A stretch of 61,349 bases of DNA, counting the filler, from Hausera hauseri (lineage: Eukaryota), in assembly GCA_046269625.1 (NCBI GenBank). It is 10 parts of 10 records of this genome, joined end to end, with 100 filler letters (N's around TTAATTAATTAA, not from the genome) between each part and the next. Parts side by side here need not be neighbours in the genome. Positions count along the whole stretch, not along the records: positions 16,987 to 28,549 come from JBJURY010089987.1; 9 more parts are not named here. One strand, written 5' to 3'. The position numbers and the translations under genes were made by a program. Shown here one piece after another: positions 15,021-53,671 of the stretch (position 1 is its first letter; each line of letters begins with the position of its first letter). Below the pieces are notes generated by a model, which did no database searches, was not told the DNA's origin, and was given only the letters and a program-made list of their open reading frames with translations.

Positions 15021-17600
15021 GCACGTCTCTGTGACTATTTGTTATAAAAATGACCCATATTTACGGTGAGAGTTGTTTATTAGACGTACTCGGATAAGAA
15101 GACAGAAGGATGAACAAAATTCTTACACAGTTATCCTAAATGAAACAGAATAAAAGTCAATGAATAATGTTGAGAGTTAACAATGACTCAGTCAAATTGT
15201 GACTAAGTCAGATTGTAAATAATGCAGTGACCGAATTAAATAGTGTACAAACAATATTGTGAATTAACGGCTGCTAAAAAAATGTAAATATTAAAATTTA
15301 AACGAATTTAAACTGAATTGCGATTGTAAACATTGGATTAATAAATGTAAATATTGGAATTCTGATTGTAAATATTGATTAAAAATTGGAATAATAATTG
15401 TGAGAATTCGAAGAAGGAGAGATAAACAAAGACTGGTTACTATATAAACCAGTGGATAGAATGAGATGGTCGAACAATTTTGAGAGCAAATTTTGAGGAA
15501 CAATTTGAAGTCGAAGAGTTACAGATTGATAACCGAAGCCAGAAGAATTGCAGATTGAAGTTATTCAGTGCTGACGATATTGTTGAATTGATTTGTATAT
15601 TGAACACTTCTCGTTGGACGATTCTGATATTAACTTGTATTTAGAAGGTGTGGTATATTTCTTGTTATTTAATATATTGTGTTGTAAAATCTCTTATAGT
15701 TTTTCGTCGCTCTTTAAGAGGGACTTGGACTACATTAAGGCTTAAAATCTTTTGTAATATTTATAGCTAAGACTAGAGACTGTAATTTGAAGCACACATC
15801 GCACGCAGTACCCGCAAGATAAAATCAAGTGCAAACTTCTAACGAGCACGTTAGAACTTATCTGCTCAGGTTGAGACCAAATTAACTTTTCAAATGTCAT
15901 TTACAGTTATTTAGAAGGAATAGTGAATACTGATTTTAATACAAACCATTACAAAATTTGTAATAAATTTTTTAACAACAGTAGATAATAAAGGCAAATC
16001 CACAAAAAAAAACCCAAAAAATTTACCCGCACTAATATTTAATGCACTGAAATCATTTTCATTGAAATTCTCGTCATTTCCATCTTAAAAAGTCCATTTA
16101 AATAAAGCGGTAAAGAAGACAAAATCACCAAGAACAAAAATGGAATGAATTGGAGATTGAACATTTTCTCCTTTACATGAAATATAAATAAATACCCAAT
16201 TAGCAGTGGATAAACTAACCTAATGAACTAGAAAAATTCAAAATGGAAAATCTGGGATGTTGGGCGAAACTAAAGGAAATAAACCACAATAAATTTATTA
16301 TAAGTGAAGGTATGTATATAATATGTAAAAAGTGAAGGAAATCATGGATGTACTCGAATATTTAACCAATTTAACACCACCTTTACTTCTACAAGGTAGC
16401 CGAGAATCAATGCCCGTTAGAAAATTTTGTTTAATCAATTTCTATTGGATGTTGATATTTCATAAAGCTGTGTCCAAGCTGATGACTTTGCAGTCAATAT
16501 AAAATAGCAATAGGATTCTTTTGGAGCAACATACTTAGTATTTATTATTAACTCTGGACCAAATTACTATTGTTCTAAAACTTTCCCGAATACACCCACA
16601 CTATGACATGCACAGAATCTTATCAAAGGAGATTTACGTAAAATGTTCTGCTTCTTGCATTCGTTGATCCCAATATGAAATTTTTATAAAGTACTAGTTT
16701 ATTCAAGTCTAATTTTTATAAAATGTATCAAACTTTAACAAATTTAAATTTATAAAATAGCAATGGGGTTCTTTTGGAGCAACATATAAAGTTATAAACT
16801 TTATATACAAATGTATTTTTGATGTCAATAATGTTGCAGAATTTGTTTAACGTTCTTTATTTAACGTTCTAATATTTCGATCTTACNNNNNNNNNNNNNN
16901 NNNNNNNNNNNNNNNNNNNNNNNNNNNNNNTTAATTAATTAANNNNNNNNNNNNNNNNNNNNNNNNNNNNNNNNNNNNNNNNNNNNCAAACTATATGTTT
17001 TATATTCAATATTTTTTAATTATTTCAATGCGCATTACAATATTGGTGGACAGTGTCTTTGTTGGACAGTCACGCTGTCTTGAATAAATTGACTGGTCAA
17101 CTGTATAATATTTACCAATATCATTTTTCCAGTCGTAGAAAGAAAATTTTAAATCAAACATTAAATTGAAACCACTCAAGTGTTAATTTTGTTTTACTCA
17201 TTAAAGTCTCTCCTTTTGAGTAAAAACAATTTGATAGTTTTTTTTTCAGTCTAATTGGCTCCTAAAAGATTTATCATTCAGTTGCAAATTAGATCCAAAT
17301 TGGACCCACTTGTTATTGATATGTATCATTTCTCTTTCTCGTTATGTGGCTACTTTACTTTGCTATTCGGATTTTGAGCATTTTGTCGAATTAGACTTGT
17401 AAATATGATGTTTTAGAGGATTTGAATTTCGTCTTAAGTATCATTGAGAGTTTTGTGTGATTTTTGAATAGTATGGCTGAATCGACACTAATTTATTATT
17501 TCTTGTATACAATATTTCAGTATCAAAATTTTGCTCATTGTAACACTTGAACGCTGCGACCTCTCAAATTACACGAGTTAAATTTTATTATGTTCGTTAT

Positions 17601-18032
17601 CTAACAAGGGAACTTATCCAGCTGGTAGCCGGGTTTTTAGTTGCCAACTTTTCAGGAATATACTATTTTTGATGCTGATTGTGAATATAAAAAAATGTTT
17701 CACAATGCGCCATGATTGTTTCGAAAAAATTAAATTTCATTTTAATATAAAATTAACGGAATCATAACAAATTATTATTACTATTTATGTATCATGTATA
17801 GTTTAATTAACATTTGTTTAAATATTCAATTTTCAAATATTCAATATTTAAATATTCAGTTTTGCAGCAGAGATCATTTGCTGGAATATAATCTCACCCA
17901 TGTGTATGCTATTAATGCCTTGCTTTTTGGTATATTTTTGTGATAATTTGTCTATGGAAATATCTATAAAAATGTCTATGGAATTGATGAGTTGTATCCG
18001 TCAAGTTGCTGTGTTGGTGTTATTGGTTTAGT
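17601..18032 (+). repeat. Left arm of diverged inverted repeat (partner 21147-21440)
   Basis: 17601-17881 aligns to rc of about 21180-21440; after a ~117-bp insert, 17999-18032 is identical to rc 21147-21180. Confidence 0.92.
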
Positions 18033-19439
18033 TGATGACGATGTTGTCGGTGAGATTCATTAACATCGACAAATTTGTCACAGCGAACGAAAAGTTGGAA
18101 TGAAAAAGTAAATTCCATTGTTTTCTGATTATTTGCATCAGCAATAGAATAGGTTAAATTCTGTTATGACAGTTGAAACTTACTGTCTACGATTAACGAA
18201 GGAAAACGCTTTGGATATTATATCTAAGTAATTATTTATTAGTTTATTTGTGATTTCAATTGAATAGTTATAATGTTATTTTGGATTACACTGACAACGT
18301 TGTTGCCAGATATCTTATTAACGATTGTTGTGTTATTGGCAAAAAACCACTGATGAGCGCCAGTGCTCTTGGATTCGATGGACAGTTGACAATTTACAAT
18401 TACAAAGGTGAACTTTGCTATCGATGCGTATTTCCTCGTCCACCACCGGCAGCTACCGTGACTAATTGTAATGAAGGTGGCGTAATCGGGCCAGGTAATT
18501 TTCTATTGTACATGTCTTTTTATATGTAATTTGGTAATTTATATTAATTACTCCGGATAAATCGAGATTATTATAAATGTAATTCAATTCAAATCTATTT
18601 TAATTTGTATTCAATGGAAAATATTTACTTGAAAATTGTTGAAAGACATTGAAGTGTAGTGCCGGGTATGCTGAGAACGATTCAAGCAACTGAAGCAATA
18701 AAAATTATTGCCGATTTCGAAAGTCTGTATCTTTCATTTCCCATCATTTAATGACGAATCTAGCAACGTTTACCGGTAAAATGTTCGTGTACGATGTCGA
18801 GAACTGTACGATGCATACCACCATGTTGACGTATGCGGTGATACGCCGACTATTGTTTGACCAATAGATTATGAGTAATTCTGTTAGTCATCAGCAACAG
18901 ACAAGGTACTTCACTGTGCTCTAGTGCCATTGTAAATATCGACATTTCCAGTGTGAGATGATATCGTTACTGTCACGATCAGACTGTATCACAATTGAGG
19001 ACTATTACGACATCGTGTCCAACGATCAGCCGCATATTCTTATCGATGTCAGACCAACTACCCAGATTGTCCTCCGCAAATTTCCACACACGCTGGGTTC
19101 GTTCTGTGTCACATGGTTTTCCGTTAATACAGTATCGTTTAGAATTGGCATTGGAGGGATTCGATTCAGTGGACAATGTCAATTTACTTCGGATTTCCGT
19201 TGCTGCCGTACGCCGCAGTCGGCATATGTCTGATGATTGTCAGTTGAATGGTGTGTTTTCTGTGTGCACGGCATTTCATTGGTTGATTAGTGTTTGTTGT
19301 TTGTCGTCGGGGTAACAAGTCACAGATTGTCGTCAGTCGGCTTCGGGAATTGATGAAAGATGATCAGGTGGTGTTGAAAGATATCATTGGTGGTATGAGA
19401 GCTTGTATGGCTGTTGATCCAGATGTTTTTGTTTATTAA
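17999..19439 (+). pseudogene. MOCS3: 5'-truncated MOCS3/UBA4 (E1-like adenylyltransferase + rhodanese)
   Basis: [60 protein letters not shown] and VCRRGNKSQ..KDIIGG; short introns (e.g. 18228-18267, 40 nt); lacks the N-terminal GxGxxG and has an in-frame stop. Confidence 0.9.
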
Positions 19440-19977
19440 ATATGGAAGTATTTTTTCTATTTTCTACTTTTGAGGGTTTGTCGTGTGTGTGTGTGTGTGT
19501 GAATATTGTAGACTGCTACGTCATTTTATGAATTCATTGAGAACAAATAATGAGAGGTACTTACGAAATAAAATTCTTATTAACGATGTGAAAAAAGTTT
19601 TGCCAGAAAACCAAAATAACTCATTTGGATCTTTTAAATGTAACAGTATTTCGCATTTGTTCAAGCCCCCTACTTTTACAAAATTTTCATTACTTTTCTT
19701 CAACTAATGTTCTTTTACTATTCGATTTACAGCGTTTCCCTTGATGTTCTGAAGAAATAAAAAATATCAATTGAATATAGCCTTTGGTCTGTCATGTGCA
19801 TAGCCAGAATTTATACACGATGGAATTAAACCAATACATTTTAGATTGATAGAATATCAAGAAAACACTATAAATAAAATATTAAAACTGTAGTCTGATA
19901 AAACGAACGAAAATCGTATCAAAGTTCAAAAGCTCCAAATGTATTATTTTAGCTTTCTCGGCAAATATTTTTTCATA

Positions 19978-20220
19978 TTATTAATCATCATTATATTTTG
20001 CATGCCTCTCTGATTATTTGTTATAAAATTGACCCACATTTACAGTAAAATCTCCCATTTATGGTACTTGTACAATATTCCCCACCTTCATTGAATTATA
20101 AATTTTAACAAATTCCACAAAAGAAATCTTCAACAATTTTCTCATGTTATTAATCATCATTATATTTTGCATGTCTCTCTGATTATTTTTTATAAAAATG
20201 ACCGACATTTGCAGTAAAAA
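19978..20220 (+). repeat. Direct duplication of ~72 bp (19978-20050 and 20147-20220)
   Basis: TTATTAATCATCATTATATTTTGCATG.CTCTCTGATTATTT.TTATAAAA.TGACC.ACATTT.CAGTAAAA occurs twice. Confidence 0.85.
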
Positions 20221-21146
20221 AGAAACCGTTTTATTGCAAAGACATAATTATGTACAATCTGTTGACAATTGGCAAAAGAATTCGGAAAAACCTTTTTAGT
20301 CAAACCATATTTTTCATATTGGTACAGAAATGCATTTTTACTAAACATTTGCCATGCCTTACCAATGACATAATTCAAAGCATCAACAGAATCTTTGCCG
20401 TCAGTTAATGCGGTAATGCTCTTTTCATATTTATTGAAAGGACGAGTATGATTCCAATATTTCAAAGAATTTCTGTTACGAAATAATGGCCCATCCCACG
20501 AAATATGACCTGATTGGATATTAAACTGCATGGACTAGATTCATCTTTAATGTTCCAACATAAACCTATTATGGTCGTTAATATAAAAATGATAAAGTTT
20601 GACAAACAGACCATCTTCCAAAAGTAATTCTGTCAAAATCATTTGATTTACATGTTTTAGTAATTGTCCCCATGTATCAGTACTAAATTCAATACTAAAA
20701 TCATCAAAATACGGAACGTTTCGCAATTATAAAAGACGATAATCCGGATGGAGTACATTTTCTAGAACAATGTCACTGAGTGGAGGTTTCGATTGAAATA
20801 CGGGCTAAATAATCAAACAGCTAAATCAGATAGTTATAAAAATTAAATACGTGATTTTACATTATAAAAAATGGTGCGATGAGAAACAAATTCTACATAA
20901 ATAAATTGCAGTGTGATTTCTTATTGATCACCTTGTAGATCAAATGTAACATGAATTTTGTCTAAATGCATGTCATCATTACAACACCCGATAACAACAA
21001 TCAAATCACTTGTAATGTTGACGCCAATTGATGAGAAAAAAGCACATTTAAATCACCAAAACCAACATTCTGTCGACCTAGCCTATTTGTGCATTCGCGA
21101 TGGACAATGTCATTTTCATGGACGGTTAGTCCATCTACTGACAAAG
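20190..21146 (-). pseudogene. TUBD1: Delta-tubulin C-terminal half, 5' truncated
   Basis: DGLTVHENDIVHREC..FGDLNVLFSHQLAS, LHPDYRLL*LRNVP..TWGQLLKH and RPFNKYEKS..IGKAWQMFSKNAFLYQYEKYG match TUBD1 as I recall it; stop codon, internal deletion, introns retained. Confidence 0.88.
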
Positions 21147-21440
21147 ACTAAACCAATAACACCAACACAGCAACTTGACGCAAACTGACCTTTGCTGCAA
21201 AACTGAATATTTACAAAATTGAATATTTGAAAATTGAATATTTAAACAAATGTTAATTTGTAATAGTAATTTGTTATGAATCCGTTACTTTTTTTAAATG
21301 AAATTTAATTTTTTCAAAGAAATCATGGCGCCATTGCAAACAAATTTTATATATATTCACAATCAGCATCAAAAATAGTATATTCCTAAATAGGTGGCAA
21401 CTAAAAACCCGGCTACCAGCAGGGTAAGTTCTCTTGTCAG
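21147..21440 (-). repeat. Right arm of inverted repeat (partner 17601-18032)
   Basis: rc begins CTGACAAGAGAACTTACCCTGCTGGTAGCCGGGTTTTTAGTTGCCA versus left CTAACAAGGGAACTTATCCAGCTGGTAGCCGGGTTTTTAGTTGCCA. Confidence 0.92.
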
Positions 21441-21844
21441 TAATTTTTGTGTTATTTGACTGAAACAAGAATTTCAAAATGTATGAAAACTAAATGCTGA
21501 TATAAGTTGTACTTATGTGACATTGACATATATTAGGTCGATTCTTTTCAAAATGTGTGAATTTTGTTAAATGACACGAAATTTTTACAATTATTAACAA
21601 AAGTGGATGTTTTCACAACTCGATTTTAGTTTAAAAATGTATATTAACATTAAAAATGTTTTAAAAGTAGTTTAAAAGAATATGTTTTTAATTGTGTTTT
21701 ATGAATGTTGAATGTATTTTAATAGTGAATTGTTAATAAAACTAAATGTTCAAAGCATATGTTTATAATTGTGTTTATTATATGTATTTATTGCTATCAA
21801 CAACACAAAAAAAGCGAATTGTTTTGCAAACTGTAATTTCTTAC

Positions 21845-22300
21845 ATCAGATTATTACATGAGACGAAATCTGGATTTACTAGTGCAATGAATACACGGTT
21901 GGTCACAGGACATGGTGAAGTGCCGACGATAATTCTCCACCTGAGGTCACAAGAACTCTTACAAAGGAGAAATACTTCGCAACTATATTCTGGGACTGGA
22001 AGGGAGTTCTGTTAGTCGACCTTCTTCCCAGCAACGAAATTATAACAGCTGTGTATTATTCCACACTGCTGCAACGCCTTTCCGCTGCCGTTTTGCAACA
22101 AAGTCGTTAAAATACGGCAAAAGGATTCTACTACTTACTACACGATAATGCCAGACCGCATGTGGCGAAGGTAACCAAACAGACGATTGACAAACCTGGT
22201 CTCAAAGTCATGCATCGTCCCCTTTTATCTACTGTATTTTACCCCGTCTGACTACTACTTGTTCTCCTCTATAAGATATAACATTCGTGGTAAAAAATTA
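21845..22300 (+). mobile_element. Mariner (DD34D) transposase remnant
   Basis: DEIWIY, IFWDWKGVLLVDLL, LLLHDNARPHVA and PSDYYLF. Confidence 0.85.
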
Positions 22301-23273
22301 TTACCCGCAGTATATAGTTATATTTTTTGGAAAGAAAACTGCGAAGTTATTCTTAGTAATTTTCATTATAAATAAAAAGTGAAACTAGCGAAGTAATGAG
22401 TAAAATACGAAGGAGTAACAAATTGTTCCGGAAAATTTATTTTTGGGAATTTGTTTAACTTATTAATTTTCAAAAATTAAGTACGCGTAAGTTTGATTTT
22501 AAGTTCACTAATTTACGTTTAAAACAAATTGAGACTAAAAATAAATTTACTTACCGTGATATATATAGTAGTTCAATATGGTGTTGATGTAATAAGTTTT
22601 GATAGTAATACATAAAAAACTGTTGTAATCTATTGATATTATAGTATAAATCTATATACATATGTATGCATATTTGTATTACTTTACAGGATCATGATTT
22701 TAAACTGAATTTATTTAAAATGTTATATATATATATATGTATATAAATGTTAGATAGAAAAATTAATGTTTCCACCTTATGCAAACAAAATAAGAATTTA
22801 TGATTTAAAATTAATAGCAAATTTTCTCAAGGTTAATTTTCGGAAGTTCATTTAGTAATTTAGAATTTAGACAATTTCGGTAAATAGTTAAGTAATTATC
22901 ACATAAAAGTGAGAATGTAAAGACCATTGTAATGTGAACATGTTAATAATCAAAATTCTAAAGCAATTTCATTTTAATCTGGAAATTCAATAATACGACA
23001 CAGACTCTAAAACATCAGATCAAAATTTTCGATTAATGGTACCGCGTTTCGAGCACAGAAACAATACTAGTAGTTTTGACTTAAATTGTTAAATATTTTT
23101 GTTTATTTTGATTGTAGACATTATAATTTAATTAATTAATTTATAATATAATTTGTAATATGATTTTTAAGATTAAGTTAATAATTTAAAAATTGGTGAA
23201 GACAATAAGTGTAAAAGAAATTAATTCGAAATCTTTATTGTATAACACAAAGTATTCAATTTCACAAAATATT

Positions 23274-24920
23274 TTAATGCTTTCTAATTTGATTTCTGAG
23301 ACTTTTTCTACAATAGGCTGCAAAAAGTATCAAACCACTGAGTAAAAATGTAACTCCACTCATTATGAATGGTCCAGTGAAATCGCCTAATTTTTCGTAA
23401 ATCTTTGCCGCAATCGGTACACCAAATACTTCTCCGAAACCTTGCGTGATACATGCAACTGACAATCCATAATGAAATAGTTCAAAGCTTGTAATTTCAG
23501 TAAGAACAACTGCGTTAAGGGAAAATTGAGCTCCATAGAATATTCCATATCCCACTATTGATGCAACCATCATTGAATATGAGTATGAAAAGGCACCAAA
23601 TAAAATTGTAAGACCTCCACATACTAAAACAGAACTATAAAGATCATAAATTTTAACACCCTTGATGGAACCTAAACTTCCAAACAGGATACGGCCAATA
23701 ATATTCCCAACACCGAAAAGTGTGATCAGTAGAGTTGAGAGAGAAATATCGACTCCATATTGAATCGCTCTGTCTCTTGCATATATAAAAGGAATATCTT
23801 GTGCAAAACTAAACATAAAGTTTGCAAAAACAAATATCGTAAATAATGGATTTCTGAACATTCTTTTAATATTTTCTAAGAATGTTATTAGTGGATGTTT
23901 CGGTTTTTCTGCTATCTCCTTACTTTCAATCTGGATGTTCACCTGTTTGTCAATCGTCGGTTTAAGTGATTTGCTAATACCGCTACTAATACTACTGTCA
24001 AGAATGCTTGGAACCGACATATATACCAAACTTTTCGTTTTAATTGATGTAACTACATGACTGCTTTGATTTTCTGATTTATCACAACTGTTGTCATTTG
24101 CAACATTCAAAAGTGTACTAATCAATATTGACTTTGATCCAAATTCACCTGAACCTTCTTCTACATTGTCTGATTTTACTACAATGTCAACCAAGTCTAT
24201 CATTTGATGGGATTCACAGTCTTTTGCAGAATTATCGACAGAATTTGTGTTATCTTTCAATGTAAAAGGTTTCATGAAAGCTGCTAAAATTGAACTTGCA
24301 CAAATTATTCCACCGTAAATTAACATTGCAACTTTCCAATTGCAAAACGTTATGAGTGGTTGAATGATTTGTGGCCAAGCCATTACTGCGACACCAATTG
24401 CACTTGCTGCAACTCCCATGACAATAGATAATCGCTTTTCAAAATATGTGATTAGTACAAATGTACCACTGTTAAAAATGATACTCAAACCTATACCAGT
24501 TGTAATGGAAAAGAATAGAAATAAAAATGCATAATTTTGACAAATAAATGGTGATGCGACTGAAAATCCAAGTAAAAGAGATCCAATTAAAAGCAACCAA
24601 CGGGGTCCCACTTTTGCATGTAATAGACTTGCAAGGGGTGTTGCAAAACACACTAAAGAAAACATTACTGACGCCAACCACCCTAAAGCTCCGTTTGATA
24701 TATTTAAATCATTTTTCATTTCTCTCATGAAAATACTGTAAGTTGATAATATTCCGGAAGCAATAAAGCGCGATAGAAATACTGCAGCCAGTACGAACCA
24801 TCCATATTCACCGTCTGGAACCGAACTAGTGGATTGTTTCTTAGGTTCAGATTTAACAAACTTTGTATCAGGAATTTGAATTGTTGTTGAAGATGAAGTA
24901 CCTTTCTCAGAATTTATCAT
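23274..24920 (-). CDS. SLC16/monocarboxylate transporter family MFS permease (548 aa, single exon)
   Basis: VPDGEYGWFVL N-terminal signature, YFEKR motif, about 12 hydrophobic segments with a long central loop, GRILFG; uninterrupted ORF. Confidence 0.93.
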   Translation of the reverse strand: MINSEKGTSSSTTIQIPDTKFVKSEPKKQSTSSVPDGEYGWFVLAAVFLSRFIASGILSTYSIFMREMKNDLNISNGALGWLASVMFSLVCFATPLASLLHAKVGPRWLLLIGSLLLGFSVASPFICQNYAFLFLFFSITTGIGLSIIFNSGTFVLITYFEKRLSIVMGVAASAIGVAVMAWPQIIQPLITFCNWKVAMLIYGGIICASSILAAFMKPFTLKDNTNSVDNSAKDCESHQMIDLVDIVVKSDNVEEGSGEFGSKSILISTLLNVANDNSCDKSENQSSHVVTSIKTKSLVYMSVPSILDSSISSGISKSLKPTIDKQVNIQIESKEIAEKPKHPLITFLENIKRMFRNPLFTIFVFANFMFSFAQDIPFIYARDRAIQYGVDISLSTLLITLFGVGNIIGRILFGSLGSIKGVKIYDLYSSVLVCGGLTILFGAFSYSYSMMVASIVGYGIFYGAQFSLNAVVLTEITSFELFHYGLSVACITQGFGEVFGVPIAAKIYEKLGDFTGPFIMSGVTFLLSGLILFAAYCRKSLRNQIRKH

Positions 24921-25439
24921 CTTTTGATTTGTATAAATACTTAATTAAATTAAGTTAAATGAATTTGAAAACACGTTTGTTTTAATATTATGAAGCATTT
25001 TATTGGATTATTATAATGTTCATTTTCTATTGCATTTAAAATTGTCATGTTACCAAAAATTAAATTTATTTTTAAATTAATATTTTAAATATTAGTTTTA
25101 ATAAAATCACTTTTAAAATGTAAACTGCGTGTTGTACAGATAAACTTACATATTATCCAGAATAAAAGTAAAATTTAGTATTTAGTGAGTCAAATGTAGT
25201 AAAATGGTAAATGAAAGAAAAATTTTTATTGTGGAAGTATAGGCATACAATATGGACAAATAGTCAAAGGATAATAATTATGTATTGTATATAAAAATAC
25301 AAATTTTCATTTGGAACATTCTATTGATATTTTGTTGTCATTTTTATACGTTCGTTTTCGGAATAGAAGTTGATTATTAATTTCAAAGATATCATCTTTC
25401 ACATTTATCTAATCCTGATGTAAGTTTACTCTGGATTTA

Positions 25440-26437
25440 TACTAGAAGATGGAATAATGAAAACACGAATAGGTAAGATTTGGATACCCACGAACAAATG
25501 AGTAGAAATTATAACTCATAATCATGTCATGCTATCTCACGCAGGACCAGAAAAGGTAATAAAATACATTGACAATAATTATGACATGGAGAACCTACGA
25601 GAAGCAGTCAAGACAGTAATTAGACATTGTGAAGCATGTCAGCGATGCAAAACCTTGACAAAGAGCACGAAGAAAGAAACAGTTAACCTATCAGCAAACG
25701 TGCCATTCGAGAAAATATACATAGATATCTGTGGACCAATGAAGGAGACATGGAGAAAAAAGATATATTTTAGCAATAATAGATCAGTACAGTAGATACC
25801 TAACCATCATTGCTATACCGAGCAAGACGAAGCAACCATCGAAGCAGAGATAGAAAAGAAATAGATCCTCAAATACAAAGCACCTAAAGAAATACATACA
25901 GACTGCGGGAAGGAATTTGATTTGAAATTGATAAAAGACATGGCGTCATCAATGAATATAAAACTGTGCTATTCGAGCCCATACAACCACAATGCAAACG
26001 GTATCATCGAGCGACAATTCCGAACAATCAGAGAATACATAAATGCCATGATAGCAGAAAAATCGAGCGTGGACTGGGAGGACATACTACCAGAAATAGA
26101 ATTTACGTTGAATGCGACAATTCAGAAGACGACAAGCAAGAGCCCAGCAGAGATAATATTTGGCAGATAGATATATAGAGAAAGACAGTATTGACAAAAA
26201 GATGGAACAGAAGGGAGGAACACAGAGCGTGAGGAAGGACCCATGGTAAAAAGGACGTTTGAAGTAGGGGATAGGTGCTGGTACGGAAGGAATCTGGAAC
26301 AAAGAAGAAAGACAAATAAAAAGGCCCTACACGATCATTGAGAAAGTACTCGACAGGCAATACGTACTACGATATGAAGGTGGCAAAACCTTGGAGTAAA
26401 ACGTAGAGAAACTACAAAGATTTTTAAAAAAGAGGGA
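25440..26437 (+). mobile_element. Gypsy integrase (decayed) with polypurine tract
   Basis: H..LSHAG..CEACQ zinc finger, IYIDICGP, HTDCGKEF, SSPYNHNANGIIER and SPAEIIFGR; PPT AAAAAAGAGGGA at about 26426-26437. Confidence 0.92.
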
Positions 26438-26439
26438 TC

Positions 26440-26869
26440 TGAGGATATAATCGAGAACTGAAATTATAAATTTAAATTAGAAGCTATTTTAAATGTTAAA
26501 AAATTCAACCATGATTTTAATTAAAAATGTAATATTGAAAGTATAATTTAATTTTGAAATTTCGGAAAATTTGTTTTCAAATGAGTATTTTGAGATACAA
26601 TAAAATTTTCAACAACTGGCGTTACTTGGCAATGAATAATGACAAACGATGAAATTCTGATTTAGCGGACATACCAGGGGACGGGGATTTTCCAACCCTA
26701 CCCAAATTGGGTGACGATGTGGACGACGTGGATGCGCTCACGGCCAACAATGTATTTGTATAATCCTTGTAAATGTGTGCTAACTTTGCATTTTAAATAA
26801 CCTTTTCTTCGTTAATAAACTCATTTGACTGAAGATGGCAATAATGGACAGAAATTAATGTATTTTTCA
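26440..26869 (+). repeat. Probable 3' LTR
   Basis: Starts TG right after the PPT, contains AATAAA, ends TATTTTTCA; right boundary tentative. Confidence 0.55.
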
Positions 26870-28649
26870 GATGTTGCACCCATCTTCAGAATATAATGTT
26901 TTCAAGGTTTTAAATTTTTAACCAGCATTCAAAAATTTAGAATATGAAATTATATGAATGAATCTATTTTATGAAACTGCTTTGAAAGTAGTTGAACAGT
27001 CCTTATGATGATTTTGAGCTTTCTCGAGATGGCAGCCTTCGACTCGCCCGCTTGTAAAAGGACTGCCATCGCTTCTTAATGGTGGCAGAGTCGCAATACA
27101 TGGTATACGCCGTTCGAAAGATAAATAAATACTGCATTAGATAATTGTTTCACGTAAAAATTTGCTAATTTTACGAACGGAGAAATTTGTGCACAAAACG
27201 CGACAAATCTTTCGCTGCACCCTGTACATTAAACTTAAAACAATTAAGAGACATCTTACCGCATGAAAATTGAATTTTCAATTTCATATCTGGGCATTGA
27301 AGTTGGGTAAACAAATTCGGTCCTGCTTGACATTTTGGACGGCTGGAACATCGTTTGCTAACAAAATGCGTTATATCTTCGGTCATGCATTTCTTTTCTA
27401 AATTTTTTTATCATTACCATAAAATCAAATTTACAAAATAAACAAAAACAGTCAAAAATTTAAAATCAGTTACCAAATTCTCTGTAACTAATACAAGAAT
27501 TTGTCAGAACTTCCAACAATTATATAAAATATACGTCGGTTTGAATTTTTCTGACTTGAATTTTCTTGATTTTACCCGTGCATTATACGCCAGAAATTGC
27601 AATTTCTGATCAATGATTGGCTATTTTGCCCTTAACATGATGCAAAAAATTAAATTTTAAATGCATGATTAATTTCCTAATTTAAATAAGATCAAATTAA
27701 CGACTTAATATTCGTATATTCTATAAAATCCTCAGAAAGGAAACAACTCAAAATTAAAAAATGAATACTACTGTTGAAGTTAATTGTATTTTTAAATAAC
27801 TAATAGTCATATTTTGTGAATAAAAATTTATTTTAACGTTTGAAATAGCTAAAATTAAATTAGAATTAGAGAAATAAAATAAACGTGAAGGAATGTAAAT
27901 TAGAACCACTACCAATATCGACTAAAATTGGTATGTTTAATCAATCTAAATTTTTGATCACGCATAGCCTTCTATCTGATTGGGTAATATTAACTAGGTC
28001 GAGTGAAAAGCAGCTATAAATACTGAAGTTAAAATCAGAAAATTTGGCCAGCTTTTCTTTCAGGAGAATCCCAGAGAGCTAAACAAAATACTACGGAAAT
28101 TCGCAAGTAACTTTGAAGCAGGAAAATTCCTAGCTAACTTACCGCTAAGTGCGAGTAGCTATTGAACAGTAGACATTCCTAGATGACTGAAAAATTGTGT
28201 TGTAAATAATAGTAACTGAGACACACTGTTAGAATACTGACGACGTAAGCGTAGTTGACTTTTGTTTTATTGAAATAAAAAATGTATAAAGGCTACTAAT
28301 AGTAAATTAAATTATTTAACAAAGTGAGAATAGAATTTATTTGTATATAGAATGGATAGTAACGAATTAATAATAGGCTAATTGTCGAAATAATTATGTT
28401 TATACGAAAGAATGTAGAATAATTTAGAATGGTGGAAAAACGTGTGGGTATAAATACCGAGAGAAGCGAACGTATGTCAGAACAGATTTCAGTCAGAAGG
28501 TGGCAAAATTTGGAATTGCGAAAAAGTGATATATATTGACTAATCGATTNNNNNNNNNNNNNNNNNNNNNNNNNNNNNNNNNNNNNNNNNNNNTTAATTA
28601 ATTAANNNNNNNNNNNNNNNNNNNNNNNNNNNNNNNNNNNNNNNNNNNN

Positions 28650-31600: not shown

Positions 31601-32760
31601 GTAATGACAGCCGTTTTCGGAATGTCTGCTGGAGCCACCGGAATTTGGTAATATTCTTTATGTAGATCAATGCAGGAAAAGATGGTCAACCATGGAGCCT
31701 GTGAAGGATATCGTTGATTAATGGTATAGTAGGCATCCATTGTTGTTATGGTGTTAAGTTTGTGGTAATCACCGCATGGCCGAAATGTGCCATCTTTTTT
31801 GGAACCAAATGCAGTGGTGAAGACCAGTGGGATTTTAATCTTCTGATTATGCCTAATTTTTCAAGGTCCAGAAACTCAGCCTACACTGCCTGTCTGCGTT
31901 GAGACGATAGCGGGCGGACCTTTGCCAGATTGGACGTTGATGTGCAGTTACTATGTGCTGGAAGGTGGATTGAGGTGGTGAGAATGATTTGTCTTTCTGC
32001 AACAGACGCATGCAGGAAGACGAAATGTATTGTTGTACATCAGAAGGCAACAATAAGAAGTTATCCGATGGTATCGATGCGTCGTTACTGGATGTAGTTG
32101 AAGTGTGAGTTTTAGACGAAGTGTTGTGACTGGGTGGTATTTGGTGCAGGATTTTCGTGTTAAAAATGGTGTTGGTAGCTGTGCTATTTATAATAGGTGT
32201 CACGCAGTTGGCAATATCGCATTTGTCACCGTAGTAAAAATTTTTGCATAAAGTATGATTATAAAAATAATTTGAATCCGAAGTCGTTTGCTTCAGTACT
32301 GACTTACTGGACGCGATCGCCGGGATGGTCACCGGAATGCTGCTAATTTGATTAAGATTATTTCCGCATTTCAAGGAACATTGTTTGCAATCTACAAGTA
32401 AATTGTAGTGGGACAGAAAGTCTAAACCCAATATAGGTGTGCGTACATTGGCTATTGTAAATTTCCATGTGAATGTGTTCGAGAGGTGTGGAAGAGTGAA
32501 TATTAATTTGGTAACTCCAAAAATCTGTAAGGGTTCACCGGACACAATAAACAGTGGCTTTTGTGAAGTGTAAATACGTTGTATGTGTATGTGATGCGTT
32601 GGTGGCAGTAGAGAAATTGCTGCGCCTGTGTCTATAAGAAAGGTGATGTTTTGCTTCGTTGGAGTTACGATTACTGCTTCCAACGTGAATACAGCAACAG
32701 ATGTGTCGGCTCTCTTTTTCGGGTTGTTGTCTTTGCTAGAACTTGCCGTGTGTCCTAGCG
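28650..32760 (-). mobile_element. Ty3/gypsy (CsRn1-like) pol: PR-RT-RH-IN, decayed, with S/T/P-rich 3' extension
   Basis: [12 protein letters not shown]; KTAVITPFGLFEYLFMPFGL; YPNTDDILIAS; TTDASRTAAGAVL; FESVRIDLVCPLP..DRSSRWPEAV; ISDQGPQF; YVGPYK. Confidence 0.93.
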
Positions 32761-32771
32761 GGGAAATTAGT

Positions 32772-34718
32772 GTAAAAATTCTCCCGTTCTCTACATTCCG
32801 ATTGAATCTCAGCGTTACGACACCGTACAATGCCGATTTCCATAAGGACAAAATGAATATCCATTTACCGCAGTCTCTGGAAACGATTGCTGAAGTATCG
32901 GATCTAGCTCGGGTAACTAAATTGGTCATCACTCCACAGAGTAATCAACCGGTGATGAGTATCGTTCAGGACACGCTGACGGCAGCAAATCAACTTACTC
33001 GTCGTGACGTATTTCTCGATAATGCCGACATTATGCATCTGTTAATGTTCCATCGGAACTGGGACGGCGTTTTACCGAAACCGGAAATATACCAAACGAA
33101 AATGTTCTGGACCGGTAAACAGCTGTATTCTCTGCTCATTCCCGGCCGGATAAATTGCATCAGAACGCACAGTACCCATCCGGACTCCGAAGAATTCGGT
33201 CCATTCAAATGGATTTCACCCGGTGATACAAAGGTCATCACTGAACACGGGAAATTGATTTGCGGAAAGACCTGTAAGAAAACATTGGGTAGCAGTTCCG
33301 GTTCATTGATTCATATCATTGCATTGAAACAGGCCCATGAAGAAACGGGCATGTTTTTCAATAACGTCCAATCGGTAGTCAATAATTGGCTGCTACTCGA
33401 AGGCCATACAATCGGTATTTGCGACGCACTATACGATTCTCGAACACGAGAAAAAATTAAATTAACCATTGAAAAAGCCAAATAAGCATTATTCGAAACG
33501 ATCGATCAAGCACACAATGACGAACTGCAATCGACACCGGGCAATACACTACGGCAGACATTCGAACATACCGTTAATAAAATCCTAATCGATGCTCCAG
33601 ATAAAACGGAGAATTACGCACAGAAATCCTTATCGCAGCATAACAATTTCAATGTTATGGTTATGCCCGGTGTCAAAAGATCGAAAATCAACGTTTCCAA
33701 AGTGATTGCCTGTGTTGGACAGCAAAACGTCGAAGGACGACGAATCCTATTCAGATTTCAACAACGAACTATACCGCACTTTATCAAAGACGATTACGGA
33801 CCGGAATCTCGGGGATTCGTGGAGAATTCGTATTTGGCCGGTTTGACACCGACGGAATTTTATTTCCATTCAATGGACGGTCGGGAAGGACTCATTAACA
33901 CAGCCGTAAAGACCGCAGAAACCGGCTATATCCAACGACGACTTATGAAGACATTGGAATCGGTGATGGTGAAATATGACCTTACTGTTCGTAATCAAAT
34001 CGATCAGATCATTCAGTTTCGCTACGGTGAAGACGGACTCGATGGGGCATTTGTGGAATTCCAGAATTTGCCGACGTATCGATTGAATACCGTTCAGTTT
34101 GAGAAGCTATTCCGATTGGACGTAACGAATGAGGACGAGTTGTTGGAGTATCTCGATGAAAATGTTGTCCATGAAATAACGACACGAACTGATTACGTTT
34201 GTTTGCTCGATGTCGAATGGAATCAGCTTTTTAAGGATCGGCGATCAATTCGGAAAATTTTGAAACATGACTCAAACGGGCGAGTTGTTCTGCCGTGTAA
34301 TATTCAACGACTGATTTCCAATGCATAAAATATCTTCAAAATTGATTTGTTAGCAAAGACGAGTTTGTCACGGATTCTTGTTATTGAAGAAGTCAACAAT
34401 TTGTGTTCGCAATTGATTGTTGTTAGCGGTGATGATGAAATTAGTAAGAAGGCTAATCATAATGCAACGTTATTGTGATGCTGTCTTATTCGCAGTTGCC
34501 TTTGTTCGAAAAAGGTCGTTCAAGAATACCGTTTAACGCAAAAGGCATTTGAATGGATAATCGGTGAAATTAAAATAAGATTTGATAAGTCATTGGCTCA
34601 TTCCGGTGAAATGGTTGGTGCATTAGCCGCAGAAAGTCTTGGTGAACCGGCTACACAAATGACACTTAATACGTTTCATTATGCCGGTGTTTCAGCGAAA
34701 AATGTTACGTTGGGCGTT
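32772..34718 (+). pseudogene. RPB1: RNA polymerase II largest subunit, internal fragment, intronless, inactive
   Basis: [20 protein letters not shown] (catalytic NADFDGD altered), [20 protein letters not shown] and [27 protein letters not shown]; one frame with stops at 33483, 34326 and about 34477; truncated at both ends. Confidence 0.95.
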
Positions 34719-34729
34719 TTTATTTTTAT

Positions 34730-35230
34730 TTTATTACGTTTCTGGATCAGTGACAATGATATCGTTTTGAATTTCCTTATTACCTCCATAATAAAACGGG
34801 GCCAAGAGGGAGTATTCACTTATATCATCTGCGTAAGCTCTCTGAGCCAACTTCTGAAGGGCACATGCATACTCTTGCACGGTTTCACCTCTTCTTTGAC
34901 GTAGCCTGTTAAACTCTCCAATTCGACCTTTTTTTATGGATCTATTAAAAGTCTTTCTTCCAGGGCGTCCTTGAGGCTAGCCCAATCAACTTTGTCATCA
35001 TCTGTAACTTGTGTATAAGCAATTAATGCTATACCTTTGAAATGTAAAGGGAGCTGTTTCATCCTAAACTCATCTGTCCATTTGCAACTTTCGGAGTACA
35101 TTTCGTACTGCATAATGAATTCACTATAAACTTGGTCCGATTTGGCCTCATGCTTGTCTATCGGCAGTATCATGTTTCCTGTTAAATTGTTGCCTAGACT
35201 TGAACCAAGTCCCGAATTTGACATTTATGG
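34730..35230 (-). mobile_element. LTR retrotransposon gag fragment
   Basis: EFIMQYE..KWTDE..LPLHFKGIA..WASLKDAL then (frameshift) [23 protein letters not shown]. Confidence 0.8.
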
Positions 35231-42374: not shown

Positions 42375-43059
42375 ACATGCCAACCAATCATACAAATACG
42401 TGTAAACTCAAGTGCTATAAAATTGCGTAAAAAATCCGCCTATTTTTATTATTTCCGCAGCTGGTCAAAATCGTCCGGGCCAGTGTCGCTTTGGGTCCCG
42501 CAAGTGTCCTAAAACGTGGACTCGATCTGTTATGTGTCAACGTAGATTTTGGGAACTGGAGCGCGTTCTGACATTGTTGGGCTCGTAATGTAGACCGACT
42601 CTTCTGGGAATAAGATGTAACAAATGTCGGGAGTAATCAACCAATAACATTTCTGGATGCTTAGACTTGCCTCGGAAAATTCCAGGTCTAAACACCCAAT
42701 TATATGAACCGCGCAGAAATTGTGCTGGGGATTTGTAAATGAAAACCATTAAGATTTGCCTGTTGTAATTCACCGAAAATTAGTTGCAACAATGCTCCAA
42801 CGTCACGAAATTGTGTAGTTTACAAAATAGAAAATTTCCTGAAATTCTGCACGATTATTTTTCAAATCAAAAGTCAAATGAAATGTTGGATTGAAAGCGT
42901 TTTGAAAAATCATGAAACATTAAACCGAAAGTCCAAATTCAAATCACTCAGTCAATGGAAGAATATCTGAAAATGTCAAAAGTACATACAAAATGTTTAA
43001 TTGAGGTTCGTAAACTTAAAATGCCTAAATTTTTTCGATCTGAGTTTTATTTATTCCGG

Positions 43060-43660
43060 TACTGTCAGTCATTGAACTATCTGACGTTTTGCCACGATTT
43101 CCTGTTATATGGGACAATATTCGCGCTGATGACTACGGTCAACGTAGACTTTTCTTGGGTCCGTATTGTGGCCGTTCATCGAGTTTAATTCAGTACGTCA
43201 GCGGAGTACTTATTAATCCTAATTGCGAGTTCGAGGCTAATTATATTGCAACGCACACGTTGGCTCAATGGACACAATGTTATAGAAGTAGTACAACCAT
43301 TGATAATCTTACTGATAATTATCTACCGTCAGAAGCGCTAAAATGTGCTGTTGTCGATTGGCTGATGGTTTTGTGTGGGGATGTCGATGCACATTCTGAA
43401 AATACAGACAAAGTGAGCAAAAAATTAATTATTGACAATAATTCATCAAATATAAAGTTCTCAACTGTGTCAAAAACATACACTGCCAAACTTTTGCAGG
43501 ATATGACTGATGAGATTTTTATCAAAAATAATGCAATTGAACTGCCAAATATATTGCTACCAATCGATGCTCCCAATACCGAAGTCGATGAGTTGAATAA
43601 CAATTTCACAAATTTGCAAAATGTGTACGAATGTGAAAATACCGACGCACCAACGTCTTC
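43060..43660 (+). pseudogene. OGA: O-GlcNAcase (GH84) internal fragment
   Basis: PVIWDNIRADDYGQRRLFLGPYCGRS..GVLINPNCEFEANYIATHTLAQW and YLPSEALKCAVVDWL match the animal OGA catalytic-domain end and stalk. Confidence 0.88.
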
Positions 43661-44440
43661 TAAAAGTGCCATGTTACTCTTTCCAGGATTTGTGTTAATC
43701 GGCCAGCTAACAATGCATACATGGATTGGTAAAGCAAGAGAGCCTCTCACAACCAGACTTAGACAACTTATGATGCAATCCATACTTAAACATGAAATGT
43801 GTTGGTTTGACATGCCCAAAAATTGACCACAAACCTCAACAGCGAGATTGGCTTTGGAAGCATCACTTGTTAAAGGAGCAGCAGGATCTCCATTAAATGT
43901 CTTTGTTAAAGCTGCAACAGATTTAATGACATCATTAACAATGGGATTTCGTTGCAGTTGGATGTTGGGCTTCCTGTTTTTCAGTTTTATTCCGTTTATG
44001 ACTCTTGCCGGTGTAATGCAAGGAAAACTTTCTACTGTTGAGAGAATGTCTGATAGTTTAAACGTTGTTTCAGCTGCCTTGCTTTTGGAGACGCTAAACA
44101 ATATACGAGTTTTTCAATCATTGGGATTACAAAGACATTTTTGTGATAAATATACGGTTAATCCAAAGTATACAAACAGATCAAAACATTTTAAACTCTT
44201 ATTCATTGGGCTAGTCAGCGGGATTGGTGCCTCAGCTATCTATTTTGGCCACTGTGTAGTGTTTCATACTGGTGGAATTTTGTTGAATAAAAACTAGATT
44301 GATTTTATTGGCCTCATGAGAATGTTTTCATGTTTCACACTAAACTCTGCAGCTCTCGCATGTGCCCTTGCTTTAGCGCCGGATACAAAAAAGCAAAAAA
44401 TGCTACAATTCAACTGTATGACGTCGTCGACCATATCAAT
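43661..44440 (+). pseudogene. ABCB1: ABCB1/P-glycoprotein second transmembrane domain fragment
   Basis: IGKAREPLTTRLR..SILKHEMCWFDMPKN*..RLALEASLVKGAAGS, ETLNNIRVFQSLG and YKKAK; stops and frameshift; no NBD. Confidence 0.85.
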
Positions 44441-47225: not shown

Positions 47226-48639
47226 TAAATCGGTTGAGTGGTTTTCGAATAATATAGACTCGAAAAGGTTAGAGGGAGCGAAAGTACACAGGCCTTTTTG
47301 GTATTAAAGGAGCAAAATTCGATATTATACTGAGCGCACACAGATAGGAATCTGAGTATGGAGATTTCGAATATGGCGTCAGATATTTGATTTTGAAATT
47401 TTTTTTGACTGAATATGGAACTAAGCACTATTCGAAAAATCTGATGAAAACATTCGATTTCCCATGTGCTAAACCCCTATAATCATTTAAATTATTCCAT
47501 GAAGATATACCATATAGATATAAAATTAATAAATCGAATCGTGCAAAAGATGCATTTTAAGTTCAATGAAGCGAAAATCGAAAAATCTATAAGCGGGTTT
47601 GAATAGAAATCCATATATAGGGAATCCGAATCCGGTGTTAGATATTCGAATGCATTATTCTAAATCGTTTATTTAGGTGTTCGAACTCGAAAACTCGATC
47701 AAGCGTAAATAATTCGAATAATCTGATGTAGACATTGGATTCCTCATCTAAGAAAACCTTATTGAAAATTTAAATTTGGCGCCGTGAAGTTCATATATTT
47801 GATGCATTAAAACAAATTGTTCTAGAATGTTCGAAAATCAAGAAAAATTCAAATTTAAAAAATCCATAAATTCAAAATTTGACTTTAAAAAGTCCGTAAA
47901 TGAGGCAATGTGCATTGACATGGCTATATTGTTTATCATTTCCAAAATCACTTCCAAGAATGGTAAGTTTTTGTTTGTGCTCCTCATATAATTGATTTAT
48001 TTTTCATATTTGCAAACTATATGAAGAATGCATGACTCAGATCTATAGGCCTAAATTACCATAATGTTATAAAAATATTTCAGTCACCTTTACAATAGGT
48101 GTGAATATTATATTTGCCCTACATGTAGGTAGTGTGCCGAACCAAATATGAGGACTTTTACAATATACATAAACAAAATTTGATTTCCTTCACGAAGTCG
48201 AAAAACAGATATTCAATACGAATATGCCAGTGATATCTTCAAAATTGAAGTTCATACGTGTATTGCATATGTGCAATATACAACGTGCAGAACTGTCATA
48301 GTACCATAAGGAGATACAAAAGATACAAATTCAAGAGGATCCAGTATTATATTTATCTAGGATGTGAGACTGTATGTGATAGAGAATACATGCAGTTTTA
48401 TAAAGATCACAATGCCAATTTGACAGATTTTAAATCAAAGTCAAAGAAGACCATCTTCAATGTGTAGCATAAGCCTGTTGTAGTAGCAATACAGCCAGTT
48501 CCACATGTAGAATTAAAACATGTAGCAGAAGCAAATATTTCAGATGCTCCATCCAAAAGTCAAAGACAGCGGGAAGTTGATACTGCAGCATTGAAGAGGA
48601 AAGTCCTCAGATATGTTATTGCTGCAACGGATCAAACAT

Positions 48640-51600
48640 CACTCCATGAGTTTCCTGAATATGCACATGATGAAACCGTGGGGATTTACAAGACAATATG
48701 GTGGAGCTGAAGGCTCTTAAAGTAAACTTAAAGTTAGAAGCCACATTTACCAATGTTGATGGCGAAGTATCAAACAGGGCCTTCAATACGAAAAATAGGT
48801 CCATATTGGAAACCACCAATATCTCAGAACGGTGGCATGAAGAACATGCTAAGATGATACATGAATCTGAAGAGTGCCAGGACAAGAACAGTGGATGGAC
48901 TCTAGCAAACATAAAGAGATTGCTTGTCTTTGTGCACAAGTACTCTGCCATGCGAGGAAGTTCCATTATACAGCTTCCACAAAGGATTGCAAAGAAGAAC
49001 GCTTGCATCAATGTCCATAATAGTGATGCAATGTGCTTCAAGTACTAAATTCTTTCAAAACTCGTACTGGTTCGAAAAAATGCTTCACGAGTTTGGTTGT
49101 ATAATGACTTACAACACAATTATGACTTCCAATGTGTTGCATTCCCTCCATTCTTAGATGAGGTCAAAAAGTCCAGTCGGATCAACAATATTTTCATGAA
49201 TATCTTTGGACTGGAGGAAGAACAATTTTATCCACTGGAAATATGTGAAGATAAATTGGAAGATGATAGGGATCTACTCCTGCTAGACGATGGACAAAAG
49301 AAACATTTTATAAGGATCAAGAATTCTGAACGCCTAGTAAGATCCCAAATAACATCAAATCATGAAAGAATTGAAATTTGTAAAAGACCTTTTGTCCCAT
49401 TTCAGCGGTAATGCACCTATGGTGAAGCTTGCAGAGCACAAGATGTATTGTAATACCAATTGTTATGTCCGGATAGAATTTATCAAGGAGGACTACATCG
49501 AATCCAAAGAGTACGAAAAGAAGCCCAAAGTTCCAATAGCCATATATTTCAACTTCAAAGCTATATTGAGTTCAGTTCAGAGTTGTAGCCCCAATCTACA
49601 ACATAATAGCACAATAGCATACCAGTATAATGAACTTTCGTCATATTGTATGTATGCCAAAGGACCGGACAAGATCCCATTTATATCCAGAGGTCCAACT
49701 GTCGCAGCACATATTGTGAAGAGATTGGAAGACATGGCTCATAGAATTGAAATTATGTTGCAGCAACACAATGAATTAAATACCATGACCATGTCAAATA
49801 ATGAACATGAGGAATGGCAGAAGACAACAACATGATACTTGTGCTCCAGATCTTTTACAATGGAGAACCACAAAGTGAGAGATTACTGCCATTTACAGGC
49901 AAATATCGTGGTGCAGTCTGCAACAATTGTAATCTGCATTGCAGAACTGTTACTTTTGTTCCTGTAATATTCCACAACCTAAGTGGATATAATTTTCGCT
50001 TTATTGTTCGGGAACTAGGAAACATTGAAAGAAACATTGACGTGGTCCCCAACAGTGAAGTAAATATAACTTTTACAAAACATGTTGAAAAAGTCCGGCT
50101 TCGCTTCGTGGACAGTTTTCAATTCATATCTTCTTCACTTGACAACTTAGTGAAGAGTCGTCCAGCAGAAGATCTTAAGGAGACGAAGCGGTTCTTTTCT
50201 AATACGTTTGATCTAGTCAAAAGGAAAGGAATGTTTCCCTATGATTACATCACATTATGGGAAACATTTGATGAAACAATTTTGCCAGCCAAGAAAGATT
50301 TTTACAGTATGCTTTCAGACAGCAATATCAGTGATTCAGATTACCAACATGCCCAAAATGTTTGGGAAGCATTCAAATGTCTAATAATAGGTGAATACAG
50401 CGATATAAACCTCAAAACGCGCCGCTGCTAAGCGATGTATTTGAAAGCTTCCGGAATATGACATTAGCAAGCCACAAGTTGGACAAAGCTCATTTCTTTA
50501 CAGCTCCAGGAATGAGTTGGGCGGAATTCTGAGATATACAGGTATTAGACTGCAGATCTTGAAGGATTATGTTATGATCCTCATGATTGAGAGACGCATT
50601 AGAGGCGGAATATGCCAGGCTATTCACCGGTATAGTAAAGCCAATAACATGTACATTGCCGAATATGATCCATCCAAAGAATCTTCATATATTACGTACC
50701 TGGATACCAACAACTTGTATGAATGGGCAATGAGCGCCCGATTGCCATATGACGACTTCAAATGGGTTGATCATCCAGAAGATGTGGCAATGCAAGACGT
50801 AGATCTCAATGGGGATACGGGCTACATACTGGAGGTGGATGTCGAATATCCGCATAATGCGTTTCCTCCTTTAGAGGAAGCAGCCACCTAATGGTAAACA
50901 TCGAAAGTTGCTATGCTATCTGGAAAAGAGGGATAGGTATGTAGTCCACTAGATCAATCTCCGGCAAGCGATGAAGAACAGACTCTGCATTACGAAGATC
51001 CATCCGATCCTGCAGTGCAGACAGTTCATGTGGTTGAAACCTTATATAGATCTCAATAGGCAGCTGAGGACCAATGCCGAAAACGATTTTGAGAAAGATC
51101 AGTTTAAGACGTACAACAATAGCGTTTTTGGCAAGACGGTGGAGAATATCCGGAATAGGATCAACATCGAATTAGTATATGTGTGGAAGCGAGCCAAGGA
51201 CCTGATTTCTAAGCCGAACGTCCACAGCAGTACCATATATATAGAGAACTTGGTCAGCTTTCATATGTTCAAAATATCCCTAAAATATTAGACCTGTCAA
51301 ACATCTTGATGTACAAATTCCACTAAGACATCATGGTCCCCACATTTCAGACTCTGCAGCTCATGTATATAGATACTAATAGCTTTATATATTATATGCA
51401 TATAGAGGTCATTCATGGGGACTTTGCTCAATTGTCAGAGCATACAGATACGTCTGACTATCCAAAAGATCATAAGAATTTCTCTGTGAAGACAAAAAGG
51501 TCCTTGGAAAATTCAGAGATGATGTGAATGGGGCACTTATCTCTAGATTTGTGGTGTCAAGATCAAAAATTTACGACATCGATGTATGAGGCAAAATAAA

Positions 51601-53663: not shown

Positions 53664-53671
53664 CTTCAAAT

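Follow-up and report, generated by a model that had tools for sequence, protein, structure and literature searches.

Host-gene pieces between Tc4/Tc5-type ends: a probable composite cassette and its transposon family in the Hausera hauseri genome assembly

Analysis of a 61,349-nucleotide stretch of the Hausera hauseri assembly GCA_046269625.1 (the window) identified a cassette in which damaged pieces of two host genes, MOCS3/UBA4 and delta-tubulin (TUBD1), are enclosed by two inverted copies of a dispersed repeat, arm A, and separated by a central repeat, module B. The element spans window positions 17605-21436 and lies within a C|TNA|G site. Arm A marks what is probably a family of non-autonomous DNA transposons with C|TNA|G ends, which carries intron-containing pieces of many host genes and is likely mobilised by a transposase of the Tc4/Tc5 type. 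An initial annotation of the window had proposed a gene-capturing element with either long terminal inverted repeats (TIRs) or two inverted copies of one capturing end, and it is the second option that fits best. The whole cassette is harboured by contig C89987, which makes up window positions 16987-28549; the assembly comprises 869 Mb in 909,086 contigs.

Arm family, target site and cargo

Arm A is a dispersed repeat with at least 41 genomic matches listed and 241 first-look candidates, 40 of which were scored. The arm is therefore not confined to the window. Nor is it native MOCS3 sequence: many genes unrelated to one another follow its inner end in different copies, and it shows homology to a terminal repeat of Tc4/Tc5 type. 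In 30 termini recovered without imposing a CTNA motif, the outermost four positions read C (27), T (29), a variable third base (A8/G9/T9/C4) and A (30), followed by CAAGGGAAC. One free base within an otherwise fixed string identifies the outer TNA as target site; the flank base at these termini is not fixed. Weak similarity had been thought to extend outward beyond the arms, but this is ruled out by 47 arm termini that stop at one common base and have unrelated flanks.

At L156 (positions 135-280), a 138-bp mini-element consisting of an arm end and a cryptic internal second end lies between two TCA copies in an exon of a voltage-gated ion channel. Deleting the 138-bp insert together with 3 bp restores the channel reading frame, from which it follows that the family makes a 3-bp TNA duplication. 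The same locus indicates that the transposase tolerates a poor second end.

Cargo was counted between the arm and the first B module, using a Pfam scan of stop-free frames of both strands (287 of the longest 435 in a first batch, 104/104 in a second), with E<=1e-4 defined as strong and E<=0.01 as weak. The strong cargo consists of MOCS3, G-beta, dynamin, ARID, ferroportin, homeodomain, LSM, APC10 and DnaJ, plus delta-tubulin, and reads inward in sense from the arm in 10/10 cases (P 0.002). Weak matches add six sense genes (CHD1-like, OST3, COE, L28, UBC and EF-hand) and two antisense (at L060 and L161), giving 16/18 in sense (P 0.0013), a statistic in which cargo genes on one element are not independent. 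Outside this count are APC10 in L059, which lies between two arms; Cse1, Fis1 and PRD, which lie beyond module B; and the cargo of contigs that lack a full arm (PRMT in L041, RB_B/PPR in L038 and GDH in L062). The ion-channel match beside L156 was rejected as antisense cargo and removed from the count, being flank.

At least 16 domain-recognisable host genes are carried by this one family of a few hundred arms. With an equal length cut-off, host domains are found in 12/32 interiors versus 5/41 outer flanks (P 0.014), and transposon or viral domains in 0/32 interiors versus 7/41 outer flanks (P 0.016); the flank control covered 150 of 298 frames from the 41 flanks. At E<=0.01 the interiors with host domains number 16/32, and those with transposon domains remain at 0. 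One block of arm plus APC10 is present at three unrelated flanks, and a block of arm plus dynamin at three, with differing N. The same cargo is thus found at different target sites, which shows that loaded elements have transposed.

In L054 and L055, an arm and its cargo occur twice in head-to-tail order, the two copies being 92-93% identical across 1.1-1.2 kb, which suggests local hopping or tandem duplication. Host domains in the outer flanks (Nic96, FHA, DEAD, FH2, ubiquitin/dynein and ion channel) read away from the A terminus at 6/6 loci (L058, L149, L152, L159, L160 and L156; P 0.03); this may mean that sense insertions in genes are selected against, or that the elements are nested in other cargo.

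Module B and the relation to Tc4/Tc5 transposons

Module B is abundant on its own, with 4266 candidates in the genome, and miniature elements (MITEs) with B-type or sister Tc4 ends and matched TAA duplications are found at L115, L137, L287 and L296. Across 110 bp, the module has 91.8% identity with a repeat that adjoins the intact transposase gene of L193 (G000:C296080:1-2270), where an intact 522-aa open reading frame (ORF) with HTH_Tnp_Tc5, DDE_1 and Transp_Tc5_C domains lies between long B-type inverted repeats. This transposase has about 18 related contigs at 74-98% and 263 homologues, the named ones being from arthropods and a tardigrade. Arm A aligns over its first ~100 bp with B-family ends; when the tip is removed, 0/200 shuffles reach the score of the left arm against L288, L294 and L299, and the comparisons with L290 and L123 are borderline. 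Among 15 Transp_Tc5_C loci, four (L182, L184, L188 and L190) have CTNA- or TTTA-CAAGGGAAC ends and two more have CAAGGA ends. That the L193 transposase might have arm A as its 5' untranslated region was also considered, and was rejected because a profile of 30 arms performs no better than shuffles.

The Tc4 and Tc5 elements of C. elegans have long fold-back repeats. Tc4 is described as using a C|TNA|G target with TNA duplication (bioRxiv 10.1101/2023.11.06.565293), and the present family resembles Tc4/Tc5 (TcMar-Tc4) elements in this target, in its 3-bp duplication, in long fold-back repeats and in termini common to loci of Tc5-domain DDD transposases. Because of the target, the termini and the ~92% match of B to an element with an intact transposase, we place the family with Tc4/Tc5 and not with Mutator, Helitron or NuwaII elements. 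As far as target and termini go, this assignment is strong; the link to one particular transposase is indirect. The Tc4 hosts listed in the same preprint are nematodes, arthropods and tardigrades. The host here may be a flatworm, and the L193 transposase would be noteworthy if the host is not an ecdysozoan.

Module B lies inside 10/18 arm-bearing sequences examined, a set partly chosen with B known to be present. In six of these its orientation is that of the copy downstream of the transposase, and in L234 the sequence continues past APC10 as far as a B terminus. A-cargo-B is therefore the probable common unit.

Structure and history of the cassette

The features of the cassette, in window positions, are as follows.

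17601..17604 (+): left half of the target site, C + TAA, from a C|TNA|G site and outside the element (terminus alignment; frame-restoring empty site at L156)
17605..17881 (+): left arm A, a long terminal repeat beginning CAAGGGAAC, with an AT-rich inner part ending in acceptor-like TTTTGCAG; first ~100 bp collinear with B-family ends
17882..17949 (+): captured piece of ~70 bp, 94-96% identical to L038
17969..18010 (+): piece of ~40 bp of a PRMT1-type arginine methyltransferase, sense, 89.6% identical to L041 with matching frame
18011..19439 (+): MOCS3/UBA4 (ThiF + rhodanese), headless and damaged, reaching its stop codon and interrupted by six introns; ThiF E 3.9e-21; six other damaged copies at 86-95%
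19440..19541 (+): 3' flanking sequence of MOCS3, containing (TG)n and passing into module B near B position 41, a junction also present in L033 and L114
19542..20219 (no strand): central module B, an internally inverted, high-copy element of Tc4/Tc5 type that contains tandem units of 169 bp and is clipped at both of its own termini; 4266 candidates, 91.8% over 110 bp to the L193 repeat
20220..21146 (-): delta-tubulin (TUBD1), headless and damaged, covering residues about 201-481 of 485, with one intron of ~205 nt and internal deletions; other copies at 75-98%
21147..21180 (-): 34-bp relic (13 bp PRMT1 + 21 bp MOCS3) that matches 17999-18032 at every base and meets TUBD1 at a 2-bp (GT) microhomology; same join in L061 at 92.5%
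21181..21436 (-): right arm A, the inverted copy; arm-to-flank junction identical in run X1
21437..21440 (+): right half of the target site, TCA + G, differing from the left TAA at the N position (from the sequence)

Self-BLAST of the window aligns 17601-17881 with 21440-21180 in inverted orientation (81.8% identity over 286 columns, E 1e-74), confirming the two diverged, opposed arms of the initial annotation. Their extents had been drawn slightly too wide: the arms are real, but the true ends are 17605 and 21436, and the outer CTAA and TCAG are target sequence.

The gene identities proposed at the outset are also borne out. For the plus-strand piece, the Pfam match to ThiF is accompanied by top solved-structure matches to Uba4 and by alignment of the rhodanese C-terminus to a Uba4-like protein. 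It begins at about residue 62 of 445, the N-terminus (the first ~60 residues) being missing, and keeps six GT..AG introns, of 40-47 nt except for one of 165 nt (borders predicted to within 1-2 nt). For the minus-strand piece, a named trematode delta-tubulin aligns over residues about 201-481 of 485 (E 5e-28 and 1e-9), and a single GT..AG intron of about 205 nt is kept (borders predicted to within 1-2 nt). Pfam and PDB searches gave no delta-tubulin identity for the window pieces. The sister copy in L053 retrieved 42 proteins, ten of which were looked up: six clusters are named tubulin delta and four carry no informative name. Three of the six named clusters are from flatworms, at about 48% identity, and these matches do not settle the host lineage. 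Stops, frameshifts and deletions are present, in keeping with the damage noticed at the outset. Seven MOCS3 pieces were aligned; six of them are long enough for an assessment, and each of these is visibly damaged or chimeric.

The genes do not, as had been stated, start at the inner edge of the arms, as short pieces of other genes intervene. In the left half, the arm is followed by ~70 bp in common with L038 (a piece that, from its resemblance, may be C1D/Rrp47-like), by ~40 bp of PRMT1 (L041 ORFs match PRMT_C, E 8e-17), and by MOCS3 from mid-exon. In the right half, it is followed by 13 bp of PRMT1, 21 bp of MOCS3 and, across the 2-bp microhomology, TUBD1; self-BLAST finds this relic, just inside the right arm and absent from the initial annotation, as a perfect 34-bp inverted match (17999-18032 / 21180-21147). 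A right-type arm continues into MOCS3 at L037, the right-hand relic/TUBD1 join is repeated at L061, and the MOCS3-to-B and TUBD1-to-B joins recur on other contigs. L037, L061 and the shared junctions indicate that both halves come from one arm-PRMT1-MOCS3 ancestor, the right half having later switched onto TUBD1. The nested junctions record the order of captures.

The absence of a target-site duplication (TSD) around the cassette, as initially annotated, is correct insofar as its two copies differ (TAA vs TCA), but the family does make 3-bp TNA duplications, which are matched in L013 and L156. Given these unlike copies, the cassette is probably not a single intact insertion. Its two arms are 88.9% identical over their first 175 bp, and the family median is likewise 88.9%. 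Because the target copies differ and the arms are no closer than the family average, we attribute the cassette to fusion or recombination of two related elements: it is likely a composite, A-cargo-B-cargo-A, formed when two related half-elements were joined through B, and later movement of the whole as a single unit is improbable.

A less probable history is that A-MOCS3-B-TUBD1-A itself transposed, as a true Pack element with long TIRs, and that one TSD base later mutated. That both arms have in common a 50-bp inner extension and the PRMT1/MOCS3 junction speaks for arms of one sublineage, the A-A pair of L013 matches (TGA/TGA), and the assembly presents a single 11.5-kb contig. However, TAA faces TCA here and TCA faces TAA in L059, and two mismatches in three pairs have a probability of about 0.03-0.06 at 10-15% decay (the terminal pair of L056, AAA/TTA, was left out of this tally as probably two unrelated ends). 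The arms are also no more alike than the family median, and no second full copy was found.

Somewhat more doubtful is that the family is real and the left and right halves of this cassette were mis-joined in assembly through near-identical MOCS3 copies. Contigs from independent runs X1 and X2 match the MOCS3 3' part, the MOCS3-B, B-TUBD1 and TUBD1-arm joins and the right flank almost without differences, whereas the left flank with its arm junction is rare in X1 and not found in X2: the window left flank has a depth of 3.4 versus about 52 in X1, and 0 in X2 (contig depth not being a copy number). The dominant MOCS3 5' part in both runs is another variant, on a right-type arm, which merges with the window near 18402-18418; the 909,086 contigs of the assembly also agree with a mis-join. 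On the other side, X1 contains exact left-flank copies, and a low-depth piece of 84 bp (18355-18438) connects window-specific MOCS3 with the shared part, with only 21 bases on one side. The X1 variant is not among the 11 matches in G000, so that a haplotype difference fits equally, and the variant form is likewise an A-cargo-B-cargo-A cassette. These data fit structural polymorphism of the left end, a mis-join being less likely.

Capture of host sequence and comparison with known systems

Several results weigh against a gene-carrying family mobilised by a Tc4/Tc5-type transposase. The left arm is not significantly similar to 4/9 B-type ends, L193 included (200 shuffles), and in direct comparison of arm A with the L193 element 51 and 149 of 200 shuffles reach the score; the link between the two runs via intermediate B relatives. 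Arm A is absent beside the transposase, both at the 15 Tc5_C loci and on contigs matching transposase DNA, and no transposase was found inside arm A itself. No contig has both an A and a B terminus, as would support A-cargo-B as a moving unit with matching TSD. TNA matches in 1/3 A-A pairs (L013, not L059 or the cassette), the Pfam scan covered 287/435 ORFs of the first batch, and the interdependence of cargo genes and the scarcity of the left junction in X1 and X2 point the same way. By DNA, protein or family search, no intact parent of MOCS3, TUBD1, APC10 or G-beta was located in this very fragmented and mixed assembly. Fragmentation around near-identical copies may explain the missing parents.

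The assembly looks mixed at L251, L259, L260 and L095, with a second APC10 at 56% protein identity, tubulin-like matches at 51% and a bacterial-looking ThiF.

For the favoured family of mobile, gene-carrying elements, the following course of events can be proposed. A Tc4/Tc5-type transposase made elsewhere in the genome likely mobilises the family in trans, and the usual unit would be asymmetric, with arm A, sense cargo and then module B. The retained introns, mid-exon joins and nested relics suggest that break repair, switching from template to template, copied the cargo from chromosomal DNA. Loaded elements then spread by transposition, as cargo common to different target sites shows, and two half-elements would have fused through B into A-cargo-B-cargo-A. 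The sense bias may stem from a putative inward-reading promoter in A, with antisense cargo purged.

A bolder and rather unlikely proposal is that the elements are exon-shuffling cassettes derived from Tc4/Tc5, in which A supplies promoter, intron and splice acceptor, B supplies the 3' end of the transposase gene, and sense host genes occupy the transposase slot and are transcribed, some cargo possibly being expressed. If so, the unbroken G-beta half and the near-complete APC10 and PRMT1 could be expressed or could have replaced their parents, and this would be a Pack system of plant scale in an animal host that possibly lies beyond the ecdysozoans from which Tc4 is known.

It is improbable that there was no capture at all, and that the arms are the ends of MITEs inserted into, or next to, genes or gene mosaics that already existed, followed by deletions. 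Such an origin would agree with the missing parents, with the unbroken 198-codon G-beta ORF of L058, which has no close intact copy, and with the host domains in 5/41 outer flanks. However, the gene pieces abut the inner arm edge with no second terminus between, the same block of arm and cargo occurs at several unrelated target sites with different N, introns are kept, unlike in mRNA-derived cargo of long-terminal-repeat (LTR) retrotransposons, and interiors are devoid of transposon domains.

The G-beta piece (L058:1862-2455) is the C-terminal half, with a stop codon and 1.7 kb of 3' sequence; its sole close relative found is broken.

A PHIS/NuwaII element with a Harbinger-type transposase is very unlikely: the family has the C|TNA|G target of NuwaII (PMC4482050) and the genome has 53 DDE_Tnp_4 matches, but NuwaII TIRs are 13-46 bp and mostly start GG (PMC4482050) while the arms start CAAGG and run >200 bp, 0/30 DDE_Tnp_4 loci fetched have the arm, and it is Tc5-domain loci that have the terminus and module B in common.

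The comparison with Pack-MULEs and Helitrons made at the outset holds for the way the family works and not for membership. Mutator elements make TSDs of 9 bp, with a range of 8-11 bp for Pack-MULEs. The TSD here is 3 bp and the flanks of three arm pairs contain no long duplication, which excludes Mutator. Helitrons have no TIR and no TSD, and insert between A and T. The family has paired inverted ends, TNA duplications and no fixed A^T insertion site or flank base, and is therefore not a Helitron. It resembles Helitrons in stepwise multi-fragment capture and in compound elements formed from the ends of two copies (PMC3288121, PMC4224331). With plant Pack-MULE and Pack-TYPE elements it has in common long terminal repeats, multi-gene cargo, multiple copies and fused AB/BB composites (PMC5861414, PMC8903248); the fusion of neighbouring Pack-TYPE elements has been modelled in plants (PMC8903248). 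Rice TIRs have been demonstrated to act as inward promoters (PMC5861414), a property that is putative for arm A. Unlike Pack-MULEs, the family has an animal host, a 3-bp TNA target, Tc4/Tc5-type ends and apparently asymmetric A and B ends.

In animals, Tan et al. 2021 (PMC8277862) report 370 Pack-TIRs in 100 genomes, of which four (1.4%) are multicopy, at ~2 per 10,000 TIR elements, and conclude that capture of host DNA by animal TIR transposons is rare and its products nearly always single-copy. Like these, the present elements have host sequence inside TIR-type ends and microhomology joins; TcMariner is a common carrier in that survey (115/370). The present elements keep introns, and loaded copies occur at distinct sites. 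Unlike them, the family is multicopy, with at least 16 host genes, serial mosaics and a sense bias. We therefore regard it as a multicopy animal Pack-TIR family, a kind well known in plants and rarely reported in animals. With it, shuffling of the Pack-MULE kind is seen in an animal, and Tc4/Tc5 joins the list of carriers. The sense bias offers a clear test between the capture mechanism and later purging of antisense copies. Orientation bias has been reported for maize Helitron cargo. Neither a gene-capturing Tc4/Tc5 family nor a sense bias of captured cargo was found in the literature searched, which included few subscription papers, and the Pack-TIR list of PMC8277862 may hold Tc4 cases. A further implication is that dead copies inflate the counts of gene families in this genome.

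Elsewhere in the window, an intact-looking, intronless frame for a 556-aa MFS transporter lies beside the cassette (23277-24944, -). The window also contains a decayed mariner-like piece recognised by eye, with no Pfam match (21850-22300), and a relic of an LTR-retrotransposon integrase (25500-26170). Broken, apparently intronless pieces of the RNA polymerase II largest subunit (32595-34901, +) adjoin an LTR-retrotransposon pol on the opposite strand. An O-GlcNAcase-like domain is followed directly by an ABC-transporter membrane domain (43044-44294, +), forming a host-gene mosaic. Further along are a relic of a protein-primed DNA polymerase B (48200-51780) and a PEPCK piece adjoining tandem repeats of ~300 bp (53079-54828).

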